The notes under the pieces: model-generated | What the model saw: only the letters and a program-made list of their open reading frames with translations | The model's database searches: none | Told to the model about the DNA's origin: nothing | Source of the DNA: a virus | Strand: one strand, 5' to 3' | IMG/VR virus record: IMGVR_UViG_3300030450_002194 | Location: 7,006-71,005 of that record | Length of the DNA: 64,000 bases | Shown: piece by piece, positions 25,504-31,652 of the stretch | How positions within the stretch are numbered: position 1 is the first letter of the stretch | Layout: every line of letters starts with the position of its first letter | Program-made: the position numbers and the translations under genes

Positions 25504-26252
25504 GAGGTTTCAAACAAAGCGAAACCATATGGTAATGAGGTTTTTTCGGGGATACAAGGAAACAAGGCTAGAAAAACACGCGAATTTTCCTTAGTCTAAA
25601 ATCTTAGTGCGTTTTCTGCACCTGTATTTCCAGTGCATTTGCTATTTAACATAGCCTTATTTTACGCTCATTACCATATGGTTATATTAAAGGGATATAG
25701 TCATGGTATCACAGTAAAATGGGCTGGTGCAGACTAGCGTAAATCGTTAGGCTGCACAATTTGCATTAAGCAAAGCCCTTGGGATACCATGTCTAGATAA
25801 CGTAATAATAATCCCAACAGCCAAGTGAGGCACTATCATAAAGGACACTGGACTAAAGACGAGTTACTTACACAAGTCCAGTGCTACCAGTAATTGACGT
25901 TAAACCATGATTTCATCATTGGCTATACATAGACATACAAGCCTGGGCTTAATGCCCTTAACGGCATATATGTCTGTCTATTCCATCAATTACCGGTTGC
26001 ACAGGCCACGCGTAACTAACTCCTCTTTACTCGCTGATGTCCTTAACCGTACCATATGGGTGTAACCCTTAAGGGAACGGAAATTATTTTTTGTGCTTCG
26101 GACATTGTTCTACACTTCCTTTGCTTCTACTGTAACTTAGTTAGATGCTTAATGCATCTCTCGCAGGAAGAGATAGAACCTGCCTCCGCAAAAAAATAAG
26201 TTCCTTCTTCGACCCATATGGTGGCATCAAGTAGGAGGTGATTGATTGAGAA

Positions 26253-26447
26253 TCATTCAAGCCAATTGTCGTCCATAGGAGGGAAGGCTCTTAGAATCGC
26301 AGAGTCTTTCTCTGGGCCGTCAGGCAAAGATTCAAGAAGCCTAATCTTCTTATGGTCTACATATGTTATGTATACGATGAACATCATCATTACTCCTAAC
26401 AATACAATCACTGGCATTACTTCATTTAACCCTAATTCTGTGGTCAT
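26253..26447 (-). CDS. 64 aa single-pass membrane protein (cassette)
   Basis: ATG 16 nt after CCATATGG; VMPVIVLLGVMMMFIVYITYV. Confidence 0.6.
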   Translation of the reverse strand: MTTELGLNEVMPVIVLLGVMMMFIVYITYVDHKKIRLLESLPDGPEKDSAILRAFPPMDDNWLE

Positions 26448-26662
26448 GTCTGCTGACGCATGACCATATGGTAGAGGGTCAATTAAGTGCCGGAGGGACT
26501 TAATGTAAGCCATGCGGTCCTCGACCAGATAAAAATGGGGCACATTGTAAGATTGTATTATACATCACAAACTACACACCTTCGGTGCCGTTTGCTCAAA
26601 ATAATATCAATCATTTTGGCTTAATGCCAAACCATATGGAATTAGAAAAGATACAAGATGGT

Positions 26663-26851
26663 TTAGAAGCCATCGTCAGGAGGTGTCCAATAGCAATATG
26701 CTATTTCGCTTCTAGTCATATTATCAAATGGTATGGAACAATCATACCTGGGGTCATAGATAGACAGATATAGCATATATGCTAACAGGGCAAACGTTAG
26801 TAGGCTTATAAGCCAAAGTTGTTTCTTTTCGTCAAGATTCCATAAGGTCAT
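26663..26851 (-). CDS. 62 aa single-pass membrane protein (cassette)
   Basis: ATG 17 nt after CCATATGG; LWLISLLTFALLAYMLYLSIY. Confidence 0.6.
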   Translation of the reverse strand: MTLWNLDEKKQLWLISLLTFALLAYMLYLSIYDPRYDCSIPFDNMTRSEIAYCYWTPPDDGF

Positions 26852-27198
26852 TTGACGCTAACGCATGACCATATGGTAGTTAAAGTAGTTATAGGCGTTA
26901 CGAGAAACGAGAGCCGCTTACACTTAACTTGCCACATGAGGTACGTATCGCGGAAAACTATCCACTTTGTTCTTGACTTAATGTCAAGTTCCGTTTTCCA
27001 CTCACGACCATATGGGCAAGTAGAATGAGAATGGAGCGTTAAAGGTGCGAAATCTACAATACTGGCAAGTATTTTCTGATACAGGCATTAAGCCGGTGCT
27101 ATGCACTATCTTACCTACAATACTTGCCAGGGCAGGTAGATTTCTTCCTTTATGACCCTATGGGGGCTACACCCATATGGTAGGTTACTTTGTTAAAG

Positions 27199-27232
27199 AC
27201 TACCTTAAATAATCCATCAAATATAGAGATAC
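27199..27232 (+). promoter_or_regulatory. archaeal-type promoter, copy 1
   Basis: ACTACC-TTAAATA-ATCCATCAAATATAGAGATAC, nearly identical to 28913-28946. Confidence 0.7.
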
Positions 27233-27273
27233 GGTGGCGACCGAACCCACCTATACTCACAGGAGTGATAAAT

Positions 27274-28029: not shown

Positions 28030-28230
28030 ATGTCAGAAGATAAAACAATTATTCAACAGATTAACGAACCAAAGTATGTTATTGAATTAGCACACAAGAA
28101 ATCAGGGTCAGCCCTTGTGCTATCAATCAACAAATTGAGAGTATCGGGTGATAATCTGGAACAGGTCATGTCTGAGTTAAATTCAGCATTAAATGACTAT
28201 CTTGGCATAACTGGGGATGACACCAGTTAG
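28030..28230 (+). CDS. 66 aa protein, possible HicB-like fold (cassette)
   Basis: GGTGA upstream; VSGDNLEQVMSELNSALNDYL. Confidence 0.65.
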   Translation: MSEDKTIIQQINEPKYVIELAHKKSGSALVLSINKLRVSGDNLEQVMSELNSALNDYLGITGDDTS

Positions 28231-28435
28231 TCAGGTATTGATTACAAAGTTCAATACCATATGATAGTAACGTAGTGGTGTTTGTAAACTAAGTCGCGGT
28301 AACTTGTTAGCGTGGCTACTGTGAGTGACGCATTAAGCGTCAGTTAAACGTAGCGAGTATAGGGTAGTTTGTAAACAACTATCTGATTGCTCACGTATTC
28401 ACAATCATATGGTGGTAAAGATAGAAGAATCTATG

Positions 28436-28567
28436 TCAGTCGGTGAAACCGAGTGTCTTGCGCATATGGAGATACTGTTCTTCATCAGACAGTATCTCGT
28501 ACAAGATATTACTCAGTGTTTCAGCGCATTCAAATAGTTCTTCCTTGGTAACCTTATTTCCGGTCAC
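28436..28567 (-). CDS. 43 aa acidic peptide (cassette)
   Basis: GTG-ACC 17 nt after CCATATGG with the same TCATGCGTTAGC leader; MTGNKVTKEELFECAETLSNILYEILSDEEQYLHMRKTLGFTD. Confidence 0.45.
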   Translation of the reverse strand: MTGNKVTKEELFECAETLSNILYEILSDEEQYLHMRKTLGFTD

Positions 28568-28912
28568 TTATTGCTAACGCATGACCATATGGTGACGAGT
28601 GGGAAAACAGTAGTTACATTAAGTAAAAAGCATAGCGTCAGTTTTCGTGCGCTGTGACCTAATGAGGCAAGTTAAGCGAGCGGCTACATCACATGTACGC
28701 CTACGTACTTATACTACCATATGGTTATTAATCACGCTTGCGAGAATTGCAAACGTCAGGTGTTAATTTGCCAAGTATGCGCATTAAGCGCAGAACTAAG
28801 TGTCAGGTAAATTAACTTGCAATCCGAAGCAAGGGTTATAGTGTTTAGCGGTAATCACCTTAAGGTTCTTAACGCTTCGCTAAACCATATGGTAGTGAAA
28901 CTTTGTGTTAGC

Positions 28913-28946
28913 ACTACCTTAAGTAGTCTATTAAATATAGAGATAC
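28913..28946 (+). promoter_or_regulatory. archaeal-type promoter, copy 3
   Basis: ACTACC-TTAAGTA-GTCTATTAAATATAGAGATAC. Confidence 0.7.
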
Positions 28947-29313
28947 GTCCTTGACGGAGGACACCGGAGTGGCTGAATATCACCGTTGTTAGGGTGAAAG
29001 GCACACATCTAGGGGTCATAGTGGCCCATCGAGCCGACTAAAGAAAACGGTAGGCAGTACAAACGCCCTTAGCGGGGTTAGATGTGGTATGTGCGGGTAA
29101 AGCAATATAACACTGTTATTGAAACTGACACCCATTGCACATTGAGAGAAACTAGAAATAGGCTTCTCTTCTCCACCCTTGAGCCAGTTTTGCACATTTC
29201 TGGCACTTAACCAAAAAATGTCGCATCTCAATAGTGAGTAAGACAACGACTTGTAACAATATAGTTAGCGCAAGTGGAAATCGTTGCATCATTATTGAGA
29301 TGAGGTCTTTTTT
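28947..29313 (+). ncRNA. putative structured non-coding RNA (~365 nt)
   Basis: follows promoter copy 3, no sense ORF in track, many helices, final hairpin plus T6. Confidence 0.6.
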
Positions 29314-31652
29314 ACAAAGTTATTACCATATGGGTTTAAGTTCTACAGATATAACTTAAGATAGCAATTAGGCGGACGAAGTCGCGCCGAAAGCAAAAGT
29401 AATCGTAGGATGCATTAAGCATCAGCGTAGCGTAGTAATTAGTTTTGTTGGAGGGAACGTAATTCCTATCTTAAGTTCTACACAGAACAATTACCCTCAA
29501 TTTGGGGTCATGTTCTAATTACTGAGAACATGTTACCATATGGATATGACTAACGATTAGTGTCCAGGAAAGCGTTAATCACATTAAGTGATAGCAGGAG
29601 TCTTAGCCTTATGTTTAGGGATGATATAAACTACGTTTTGATAACTACGTTTATTACTACCATATGGTTGCTGAAAGAGATAACGGCGAAATTCATCAAA
29701 ACAAATGAATTGAGCCGTAGTCTCTGTAACAGCAGTGGAGTACCTACGAAACGTACCCCAATTCTATGCTGTCTTATGTTATACACTCCTTCTGGTCTTA
29801 TATGGAACCACACTATATACCTTCAGTCGTTATGCTTTGCATGGTGCATAATGCACCTGTTACCACTCCTTCTAATTATAGGTGGAACCTATGACCATAT
29901 GGATGAGAAAGGTTTCAGTCGGGATACGCTGAAGCATGGCGAGATGTTATTGCATTAAGCAATAGCGATACGCGTGTATGGAGGCATGTCTGGTGCGTAT
30001 CTTGCTGGGCCAATCTTGCATCCTGATAGGATGTTTTGGTTAATCACTTTTCCTTACTTTACGTGATTAACGTCACACCATATGGTCGGTGAGGTTGAGG
30101 TGTCGAAGACGGTGGTGCTTGCACCTTGGCATCATCGAAGACATACGAAGTAATAATGTCTGAGATATGCCAAATAGTCGTAGGCCCCTCATAATGCACC
30201 CAGACCTTATGAGAGGAGTTGATTTATACGTGTAGTCTTTAACTTTGTTAAAGCCAACTTTAACTTAATGTTTTAAATAAATAAACTTAACCTCATATGG
30301 TAGTGCAAGAGCGATACAGCAAACAACAACTGTATCAAACTTGATAGGAGATATGAAAACACACTCTTGCAACTATCCTCATCGGCTCACCACTTAGCGG
30401 TAGCATATGGGTGTAGCCCTGACAGGGTGCATAATAACTTGCAAATCTCCGCTGGAACTTCGTAACATTGTTTAACAAGAGGCTTAATGCCTCTATACTT
30501 TACGAAGATTCCAGTCTCCGTTTGCAAGTAATTATCATTTCATGCCCATATGGAAAGGTGGGGTATAAAGTCTTCAGCGCAGCATGTAGGCATTAAGCAG
30601 GGTGCTAAGCACCCAATGCTGCGATTTATACCTTACAATCCCCAAGCATTAGGGTTGTATTGTCTTTGTGTAGAGTATACGCTCTTACGAACTAGTGTTG
30701 TCTTATCTCCTGGAGACAACACTCAGTTCTCCACTATCGTAGCATATACTCTACTGCTGAGTATACCAACCATATGGATAGTAAGGCTTACGGTAGGCTT
30801 ACCGTAGCGAGTCGATAGTGTACTTACATTAAGTAAGAGCAGAGGTAATAAACGTAGTTTATGCCAGGATGCGTTTGCTATCGGGCGAGACGGTGGTAAG
30901 ACTAGTGGGGCCATTAAATCCTGATGGGGTGTTTCACACCATATGGTATGAGTTACGGTTTACCAAGGTTTACAGGGTTAAGTAAGAGTACGCTACAGTG
31001 GGGAACAAGTATAGATGCATTAAGCATCGAACAAAGTGGAATGCAGTTCCCGGATATGTAGCGTAGTCTTAGTTAAGACTGTAAACTGGTGTGGCCGATA
31101 ATACGCAATACCAGAACATAGGGTAGTTATCACTACGTTCATTGCTTAAAGGAAGGAGTTAAACTGTAGAACTCCGATGCTCTGGCTTAACGCCTGTCCC
31201 GCTGAATCTAGCGGGAACCGCATGTTTATCTTCATTCTACAGAGCCTCCTCCTTTAACCGTCACTCCGTTTCACTACCATATGGCTTTGCCTTCGATTTT
31301 TTTTCTTATTGTTTAATCATTCTTTATCCAATGTTGGCATAAGATTTTGTTCTTCCAAAGCCTAATTTGATATACTACCCGTAGGGGTGTCCATATAGAG
31401 AAGCGTCAGGTGTGCTAACTCTAGTAATTAAACATAAATAAATTCGCGGTGCTGTGATATGAACAAAGGATACAATGAAGTATTAACCTTCGTTTAACCA
31501 CAGCCCATTGATAGGTAAATAAAAAGCATAGGCTTATCCTGGGAATGCACAAAGTTTAGGTTAAAAAAAAACGCAAGTGCCACATAAATTACAGCCCAAA
31601 TTTCAAAAAATAAAGGTCTAAAAAATTCCACCACACAAAAGAGGTAAAAAGC

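Follow-up and report, generated by a model that had tools for sequence, protein, structure and literature searches.

A hairpin with an invariant loop and covarying stems is a lineage-specific signature of gene-less modules in a palindrome-jointed viral array

The DNA under study is a 64-kb stretch (hereafter, the window; positions 7,006 to 71,005) of the 71-kb virus record IMGVR_UViG_3300030450_002194 of the IMG/VR database, and the element of interest is a short hairpin with an ATTAA loop that recurs in an array of small modules at 24804..31284 of the window. Genes are directed leftward until ~25.5 kb (the replication arm) and rightward from ~31.6 kb (the structural arm), and the array is a mostly ORF-free stretch between these two arms. 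Tailed-virus genes of the window code for a terminase, a portal and a prohead protease; other genes encode a split family-B DNA polymerase (PolB), an RFC-like ATPase, a ribonucleotide reductase, ThiF and JAB proteins, a zinc-ribbon protein of the TFIIB type and two ATP-dependent ligases (9099-10622 and 59505-62024), one of which lies within the structural arm. The closest relatives of the portal and the polymerase are found in haloarchaeal and Methanomassiliicoccales tailed viruses, and the sequencing runs that contain the window stretch are labelled as marine metagenomes. The passages of PMC5434244 that deal with group B magroviruses describe a halovirus-like morphogenetic module, an archaeal-type replisome, a split DNA polymerase, a tRNA-Leu and a pair of ATP-dependent ligases, of which one belongs to the structural module; magroviruses are presented there as abundant viruses of uncultured surface-ocean archaea, with Marine Group II as the hosts. 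This set of traits is found in the virus studied here as well, and its gene content points to a marine archaeal tailed virus, a group-B-like magrovirus.

The array consists of ~28 units joined by the 8-bp palindrome CCATATGG. Exact copies of the palindrome number 23 in the window against 0.98 expected, and every one of them falls inside 24804-31284; copies with one mismatch are located at 26840, 27156, 28257, 28405, 28462, 30293, 30403 and 31391. The array takes up ~8% of this genome, and most of its modules encode nothing recognisable. Using one of the array-encoded proteins, HGKS, 15 related loci were found in IMG/VR, which together with the window give 16 arrays; all 15 loci carry 11-23 copies of CCATATGG within ~5-6 kb. 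The first 50 kb of the cultured relative, halovirus HVTV-1, are densely coding and hold no comparable array.

Homologous units of different arrays align palindrome to palindrome, and their order and orientation are scrambled among the relatives. As many as 17 of the 24 units of locus L002 have a partner in L003, four of them inverted (three of which are hairpin modules) and most displaced, and L001 contains homologues of only 6 of the 27 window units, despite flanks that are 82-86% identical. The presence of one hairpin module (28257..28412, plus strand) varies in natural populations: in a DNA contig of run X4, positions 28257 and 28406 are joined, with six letters shared. This loss is precise and leaves one perfect palindrome. 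Since the ends of the module are imperfect (CCATATGA ... TCATATGG), as they also are in L001, where the orthologue of the module is inverted, the exchange must have its place within the central CATATG. Two different modules of one genome, L002 7906-8120 and 9367-9566, have a common internal block of ~40 nt; the modules are therefore mosaics that exchange sub-blocks. Module interiors are strongly folded (z of -2.8 and -3.0 for the two strands vs -0.4 for coding controls), and in 36 homology groups the long module stems contained 81 compensatory, 68 one-sided and 36 broken pairs. Runs of T and A at module ends are symmetric on both strands and so do not inform on the strand. We have also considered that the modules might resemble miniature inverted-repeat transposable elements, and rejected this, as short modules have no terminal inverted repeats beyond the palindrome consensus (of 12 positions 3.98 are identical, as in the control). 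The arrays of the window and L001-L003 are also enriched in a second palindrome with a GC clamp and an AT core, CCTTAAGG (8 vs 1 for the background), often as a CCC-TTAA-GGG hairpin that lies six letters from a joint and after GTGTAR.

The hairpin is built on the heptanucleotide CATTAAG, which occurs 28 times on the two strands of the window, while 15.4 +/- 3.8 occurrences are expected and none of 100 shuffles got to 28. Eighteen of the 28 exact copies lie within 25764-31024, 11 on the plus and 7 on the minus strand, and they are contained in 16 array units. At least two Watson-Crick pairs beyond the closing C-G are formed at 16 of these 18 sites and at least three at 14 of them; outside the array region just one of ten copies, at 4792, has a stem. 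A covariance model, R1, built from the aligned set described below, found only two weak window sites outside the array (16.4 and 12.7 bits). Calculated fold energies of the hairpins are -1 to -6.5 kcal/mol as DNA and -0.5 to -9.1 as RNA. A preliminary description of the locus, made from the sequence alone, had listed 19 sites, and all of them are present (its positions being those of the base before the motif), the nineteenth as a CGTTAAG variant on the minus strand at 31186.

The individual hairpins are as follows, with the strand and the R1 score in brackets. Five Watson-Crick pairs outside C-G are formed by AGATG-CATTAAG-CATCT at 26143..26159 (minus, 24.1 bits), by TTTGG-CATTAAG-CCAAA at 26615..26631 (minus, 24.6 bits), which adjoins the palindrome at 26632 (d5 = 5), by CTTGA-CATTAAG-TCAAG at 26972..26988 (minus, 22.7 bits), by TGACG-CATTAAG-CGTCA at 28326..28342 (plus; -6.5 kcal/mol as DNA and -8.6 as RNA), by TATTG-CATTAAG-CAATA at 29948..29964 (plus), which has eight pairs if G.T is included and the top R1 score of 25.8 bits, and by AGAGG-CATTAAG-CCTCT at 30478..30494 (minus, 25.4 bits), which in the module fold forms the tip of a long module hairpin. 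Four pairs are present in TTTG-CATTAAG-CAAA at 25760..25774 (plus, 21.1 bits), TGCG-CATTAAG-CGCA at 28778..28792 (plus, 22.8 bits), GATG-CATTAAG-CATC at both 29409..29423 (plus, 24.1 bits) and 31014..31028 (plus, 24.2 bits), ATCA-CATTAAG-TGAT at 29578..29592 (plus, 23.4 bits) and CTTA-CATTAAG-TAAG at 30823..30837 (plus, 23.6 bits). Shorter stems of three pairs are found in GGG-CATTAAG-CCC at 25945..25957 (minus, 23.4 bits) and TTA-CATTAAG-TAA at 28614..28626 (plus, 20.8 bits), and stems of two pairs in GG-CATTAAG-CC at 27084..27094 (plus, 23.8 bits) and the AT-rich AA-CATTAAG-TT at 30262..30272 (minus, 17.4 bits). The weak copies, whose motifs start at 26499 and 30591, have one extra pair apiece: that at 26498..26506 (minus) is missed by R1 at E<=10, and G-CATTAAG-C at 30590..30598 (plus, 17.8 bits) lies inside a branched fold. 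There are also two variants, GGTGC-ATAAT-GCACC at 29843..29857 (plus) in a module without CATTAAG (R1 match 29840-29860, 13.8 bits, E 2.9) and the above-mentioned GG-CGTTAAG-CC at 31184..31194 (minus; TTAAC on the plus strand), with two Watson-Crick pairs, 11.8 bits and an E of 9.2.

For the analysis of covariation, the 18 window hairpins were combined with 38 from the related viral contigs L001-L003, which gave 56 hairpins in 52 distinct rows. Paired cells amounted to 80.4%, compared to 55.5 +/- 2.1% in 500 column-preserving shuffles, none of which was as high, and fell to 24-38% when the partner arm was slid. At the four variable pairs all changes are two-sided, with no one-sided change and only 2 G-U cells. 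The closing C-G pair is invariant, and the pair adjoining it is G-C in 44, A-T in 10 and T-A in 2 of the 56 hairpins; thus, both the conserved loop on covarying stems and the joint replacement of G..C by A..T that had been noticed in the preliminary description hold in the larger set. As many as 30 distinct 4-nt arms are present among the 56 hairpins, and each arm is G/T-rich when read 5' to 3', on either strand. Compensatory differences are also seen between orthologous modules, for example AGGA/TCCT vs AGGG/CCCT or, for the hairpin at 28326..28342, whose L001 orthologue is TTAGTG-CGTTAAG-CACTAA, TGACG/CGTCA vs TTAGTG/CACTAA. The stem consists of C-G plus 3-5 pairs in 48 of the 56 hairpins and never has more than five pairs beyond C-G, and at its foot, in 54 distinct hairpins, a purine opposes a purine in 38 cases, a pyrimidine a pyrimidine in 5, with 11 mixed. 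Since the foot is purine-purine, one particular strand must be the functional one. No conserved tag other than this purine on each side was found next to the stem. We conclude that the hairpin is a discrete element: an ATTAA pentaloop closed by C-G, with a stem that continues for 3-5 Watson-Crick pairs and is terminated at the foot by two opposed purines.

The hairpin is placed within its module in a polar manner. Of 41 modules with a single hairpin, 39 have it closer to the 5' palindrome, as read on the CATTAAG strand, and so do 28 of 30 homology groups; the near joint is at a median distance of 32 nt and the far one at 116 nt, and in 6 of the 41 modules the hairpin begins 0-1 nt past the palindrome. 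The 12 nt located 5' of the stem are A-rich and C-poor, and the far module end has a somewhat stronger consensus, T-W-G-T-A-N-A-T-A, following the palindrome. The orientation of hairpins relative to the genome is mixed, in the window and in L001-L003 alike. A link to replication direction was considered and rejected: window copies are mostly on the minus strand left of ~27000 and mostly on the plus strand to the right, and no such switch is present in L001-L003. Nor does the loop serve as an in-frame stop or start, since its distances to the palindrome ATG are spread over all three frames. The view that the small hairpin sits as a branch on top of a longer stem is borne out by several minimum free energy folds (30403-30553, 26052-26221 and 27008-27180) and fails where the hairpin adjoins the palindrome. 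The more general proposal of a structure-specific recognition element on single-stranded nucleic acid is upheld by the invariant loop, complementary varying arms, defined stem length, strand-specific foot and compensatory changes. The particular roles suggested along with it (protein sponge, anti-defence decoy, nicking site) obtained no direct support.

One can ask whether such a pattern could arise with no selected function, if the core was inherited from an ancestral module and the arms were kept complementary by templated correction of quasi-palindromes in replication. Whole modules are rich in inverted repeats on both strands, mismatch types are random and the mosaic modules exchange sub-blocks, all of which would fit such a history. 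It does not account for a 7-nt core that stayed invariant amid the full turnover of the remaining module (as seen in the few window cassettes with an L001 homologue), and neutral correction predicts neither the fixed stem length, nor the strand-specific foot, nor the polar position. We therefore hold this explanation to be very improbable.

Stemmed CATTAAG hairpins are present only in the window and L001-L003 among the 16 arrays, and a pattern scan of IMG/VR retrieved in-array CATTAAG hairpins on those three contigs only. The arrays of L009-L011 instead contain 8-10 A-CGCTWAG-T sites each, 26 in total and all of the same polarity, with AT-rich words such as AATATAATA immediately before and a GTGAAACG or ACGAAGTG word after the motif. 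In L004, L006 and L007, a mini-hairpin is followed by CTAARYG, and its tetraloops vary between orthologues (e.g., gtaa vs ttaa). The common theme is a C-R-Y-T-W-A-G-like word in an unpaired context, the exact letters of which depend on the lineage. Since the loop differs between clades while the architecture stays, the factor that reads the hairpin is probably virus-encoded and co-evolving with it. A single GG-CATTAAG-CC hairpin (20.3 bits with R1) is also found directly after the HGKS-B stop codon in L009 (6670-6690), L010 (2378-2398) and L011 (10539-10559), where the motif is on the minus strand and the sequence is given for that strand.

A gene for tRNA-Leu(UAA) (23011-23097, minus strand), with the anticodon loop CUUAAGA, lies a few kb from the array, and the same tRNA gene is found near the array in 10 of the 15 related loci (L001, L004, L005, L007, L008 and L011-L015). 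This brings up a decoy or sponge present in many copies, by which a hairpin-binding factor of the host or the virus would be titrated away; a special case would be an anticodon-arm look-alike. The copy number of ~10-20 per genome would suit such a role, the CTTAATG strand reads C32-U33-UAA-U-G, and on the opposite strand the loops of both hairpin-loop clades correspond to a Leu codon plus A (UUA-A, CUA-A, CUU-A), as a T-box specifier might show. On the other hand, the C-G closure gives a loop of 5 and not 7 nt, position 37 would be a pyrimidine (U or C), L009-L011 show CUA and CUU though L011 keeps tRNA-Leu(UAA), and the CTAARYG word of L004, L006 and L007 adjoins a mini-hairpin with varying tetraloops instead of being in a hairpin loop. 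The likeness to Leu codons and the nearness of tRNA-Leu may be a coincidence, and we judge a decoy to be quite improbable.

Besides gene-less modules, the array contains expression cassettes for two paralogous HGKS proteins, one 66-aa protein and one structured manA-like RNA, and mini-ORF (open reading frame) units. The HGKS paralogues (24926-25435, minus, and 27274-27813, plus) lie inside the array in 16 of 16 genomes. The HGKS AlphaFold model (pLDDT, the predicted local distance difference test score, of 84) is helical with an acidic tail; a Foldseek search against PDB gave nothing at E<=0.001, the matches of VIA-align were all of a generic helical kind (Z of at most 6.2), and no Pfam or PHROG family matched. 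The gene cassettes have a promoter of the TATA type, with a CTTTG-loop hairpin between the palindrome and the TATA box, and bear CTTTG-loop hairpins next to both palindromes. In metatranscriptome runs X18, X19 and X20, RNA contigs cover only 25008-25475 and 27235-27797 (the HGKS genes, at a contig depth of up to 52) and 29036-29204, within the manA-like cassette; adapter letters immediately precede 27235, which would place a transcript start ~26 nt past the CCTTAAATAA box. None of these contigs lies over a hairpin module, from which nothing is concluded, since contigs show presence and not absence. The manA-like RNA (28947-29180, plus; cassette 28885-29333) matches the Rfam manA RNA (RF01745) with 41.9 bits and an E of 2e-8, over the whole model and below the gathering score of 55.2; its cassette is promoter-driven and ORF-free, and homologous cassettes are present in at least 10 of the 15 related loci. 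The mini-ORF units (26253-26441, 26663-26848 and 28436-28564, all minus) have a common leader after the palindrome (TCATGCGTYAGC) and lack a cassette-type promoter; at least the first of them encodes a hydrophobic peptide of ~60 aa.

Since the loop is constant while the stem changes, the folded loop must be read by some factor, and we tentatively propose that the hairpin acts in single-stranded DNA, as a signal for a viral factor involved in handling the modules. Single-stranded DNA would arise in the array when it is replicated, when ends are resected or when strands are exchanged at the palindromic joints; the hairpin would then form on one particular strand, where a sequence-specific factor could read its loop. 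The folded hairpin would mark a gene-less module together with its polarity, and candidate machinery would copy, move or keep the marked modules at the nearby CCATATGG. We infer DNA as the molecule, a viral protein as its reader and module handling as its role. Enzymes that would fit such a role are encoded by the virus, namely an ERCC4+HhH2 nuclease, a PD-(D/E)XK nuclease and the two ATP-dependent ligases. DNA is the most likely molecule because the modules move as DNA, with exact palindrome boundaries, scrambled order, inversion and natural loss, and because there are just the 2 G-U cells, no one-sided change, no excess of G.T and equal folding of both strands. As regards the mismatches, a comparison of G-U with A-C counts had been suggested as a guide to the strand, and it gave no signal: of 220 single mismatches in helices of 166 modules of gene-less size, 34 were G.T and 29 A.C, which is approximately the random share. 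Likewise, the minimum free energy as RNA favoured the CATTAAG strand in 24 of 41 modules and the other strand in 17 (p 0.35-0.64); the purine content of the CATTAAG strand is 0.516, with an AT skew at p 0.012 and no significant GC skew.

Several points weigh against this proposal. The tests that favour DNA are weak: manA-like RNA cassettes gave 3 G.T vs 3 A.C of 21 in the same mismatch test, and their sense strand is more stable in just 5 of 12. Since expressed manA-like RNAs are thus not marked as RNA either, the strand tests are held to be uninformative, and avoidance of G-U may also be expected of short protein-bound RNA hairpins. A 5-bp hairpin is unable to extrude from duplex DNA alone, and free orientation would put half of the copies on the leading-strand template. 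The distance between hairpin and palindrome ranges from 3 to 126 nt, unlike in known hairpin-guided DNA enzymes with fixed geometry. The gene cassettes of the array shuffle without a CATTAAG hairpin, which is therefore not required for movement at the palindrome in general. Finally, the array-borne proteins have no recognisable fold, and a Pfam scan of 60 proteins (59 of this genome plus one of L014, which is not every ORF and includes many orphans) revealed no recombinase, integrase, HUH nuclease or transposase.

The hairpin could instead act in RNA, if each gene-less module were transcribed as a small unit of its own and proteins bound the transcript by the hairpin as a handle. A conserved loop on a variable stem is typical for RNA-protein sites, the modules are strongly folded with long stems kept by compensatory changes, and the same array houses a true RNA gene, the manA-like one covered by an RNA contig. 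As modules work either way round and some hairpins adjoin the palindrome, leaving an RNA with a 5' hairpin no room for its own promoter, the autonomous form of such an RNA would be one of the CTTAATG strand, with its start close to the far palindrome, where the stronger T-W-G-T-A-N-A-T-A consensus is found, and its end formed by the hairpin (loop UUAAU) and a U-rich stretch, the latter being the complement of the A-rich, C-poor 5' flank. The hairpin would then serve as a 3'-end stabilising, processing or termination signal with a viral reader. What speaks against RNA is that no TATA box at a fixed distance from the hairpin and no TATA box or TFIIB recognition element (BRE) like that heading the gene cassettes was detected, that only 8 of 59 hairpins have a T4 run within 15 nt on one side and none of the 59 has one on the opposite side, that the stems are nearly free of wobble pairs and that fold energy prefers neither strand. 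Module bodies gave no matches beyond shuffle level to the rest of the 71-kb genome and none to 247,462 bases of the relatives' non-array DNA, except for edge modules outside the set array limits; a guide-like role would therefore be without a target in the DNA searched. Hairpin modules had no Rfam match, whether the window was searched at the gathering score or 24700-31500 at E<=5. An RNA handle, the main rival, is a possible, if somewhat unlikely, explanation, and we would describe its version with a 3'-terminal hairpin in the same terms, as possible and somewhat unlikely.

A third function that we have weighed is transcription control at the DNA level. The hairpin would be part of a promoter or operator, such as a melted-strand hairpin promoter or a site for a viral regulator, and would start or block transcription across the adjoining palindrome. 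A TFIIB-type protein is encoded by the virus itself, the gene cassettes also possess a conserved-loop (CTTTG) hairpin between palindrome and TATA box, the region upstream of the stem shows a modest A+T enrichment, and AT-rich words such as AATATAATA directly precede the L009-L011 motif. This enrichment does not amount to an A/T block at a fixed distance, A+T being 0.6-0.8 by position, with A/T runs of at least 6 upstream in 18 and downstream in 15 of 55 hairpins. Moreover, transcription from two window hairpins would be antisense to the neighbouring mini-ORF cassettes or lead away from them, and a duplex-DNA site would leave the complementary, freely varying arms unexplained. Transcription control is, in our opinion, unlikely.

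Among known systems, promoter-early stem-loop (PeSL) cassettes of T4-type phages carry σ70 promoters and terminator hairpins that flank ORFs, in the sections of Arbiol et al. 2010 (PMC2839356) devoted to them. As in the PeSLs of those sections, repeated stem-loop signals are found here in a hyperplastic region of a tailed virus, where recombination shuffles and deletes small units; unlike there, units are joined by an 8-bp palindrome and also invert, and the hairpin has an invariant loop and is found within gene-less units, where its distance to the joint varies. The hairpin modules also lack the defining features of PeSLs, there being no promoter at a fixed distance and the above-mentioned scarcity of T4 runs, whereas the gene cassettes of the array, with their CTTTG hairpin and TATA box, do resemble them. 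Integron attC sites are alike in forming a cassette array with non-coding cassettes, in which a folded single strand is recognised by structure and in a strand-specific manner. They differ in that the attC crossover lies in the hairpin base, while here the units end at CCATATGG with the hairpin some distance away, and in that attC sites are not known to have a conserved loop, while here the loop is fixed and cassettes occur in both orientations. The attC sites are also much longer than the 15-17-nt hairpin described here. A tyrosine recombinase of the IntI type was not present among the Pfam-scanned proteins, many ORFs being orphan or unscanned.

Elements of the IS200/IS605, REP/RAYT and Helitron/IS91 types have short hairpins of single-stranded DNA near the element end, which the mobilising enzyme reads in a strand-specific way, and exist as many non-autonomous copies in both orientations. 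In contrast to IS200/IS605 and REP/RAYT, there is here one hairpin per unit, which is at no fixed distance from the joint, no tag of the GTAG/CTRR type is present, and a shared palindrome forms the joints; neither an HUH or Y1 enzyme, the hallmark of these elements, nor a nickase was recognised among the 60 scanned proteins, the orphans of which could escape such a scan. Sponge RNAs such as CsrB and RsmZ present many short hairpins with a conserved loop and variable stems, in one orientation on one transcript, and the boxB of phage lambda is a 5-bp stem with a pentaloop that is read by a small viral protein; the hairpins described here differ in residing in separate modules on both strands, and AUUAA is not GNRA-like. 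The promoters of the phage N4 virion RNA polymerase are DNA hairpins of 5-7 bp with a small specific loop of 3 nt, of which one strand is read. The loop studied here has 5 nt, and no single-subunit RNA polymerase was recognised.

An extension of the single-stranded-DNA proposal would be that the hairpin modules are non-autonomous mobile DNA elements of a new archaeal-virus cassette system, moved, flipped and exchanged at CCATATGG, with the hairpin as their mobilisation or retention signal and an enzyme of no known family. We regard this as distinctly doubtful. The enzyme would perhaps be among the array-borne orphan proteins. To the left of the window (L017 of genome C1), the virus encodes a short ERCC4 nuclease with tandem helix-hairpin-helix motifs (XPF/Mus81-like; 2836-3522, minus) and a PD-(D/E)XK nuclease (4913-5779, minus), structure-specific enzymes that could act on hairpin-rich DNA. 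In the right arm (31653-36500, plus), M-x-W-x-D-[IV]-[IL]-K opens many proteins, as is visible in their translations.

A published description of the hairpin was not found in the literature searched on magroviruses, on the palindrome or on the motif, supplements not being covered; by word search, PMC5434244 makes no mention of repeats, non-coding or intergenic DNA, palindromes or hairpins, and PMC11706807 mentions only terminal repeats. The array context, the purine-purine foot, the polarity of the hairpin in the module and the clade-specific loop are new with respect to the preliminary description. Thus, the element is real, statistically solid and lineage-specific, the signature of gene-less modules in an undescribed module-shuffling array jointed by CCATATGG.

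If the hairpin is a handle for module recognition, it would offer a biochemical entry point to an undescribed reshuffling of viral DNA in archaea; if it is an RNA handle, the modules would constitute a large new family of viral small RNAs. The clade-specific loops offer natural specificity-swap comparisons under either the DNA or the RNA reading. Should the hairpin modules prove to be mobile elements, their array would represent a third kind of cassette system, beside integrons and PeSLs.

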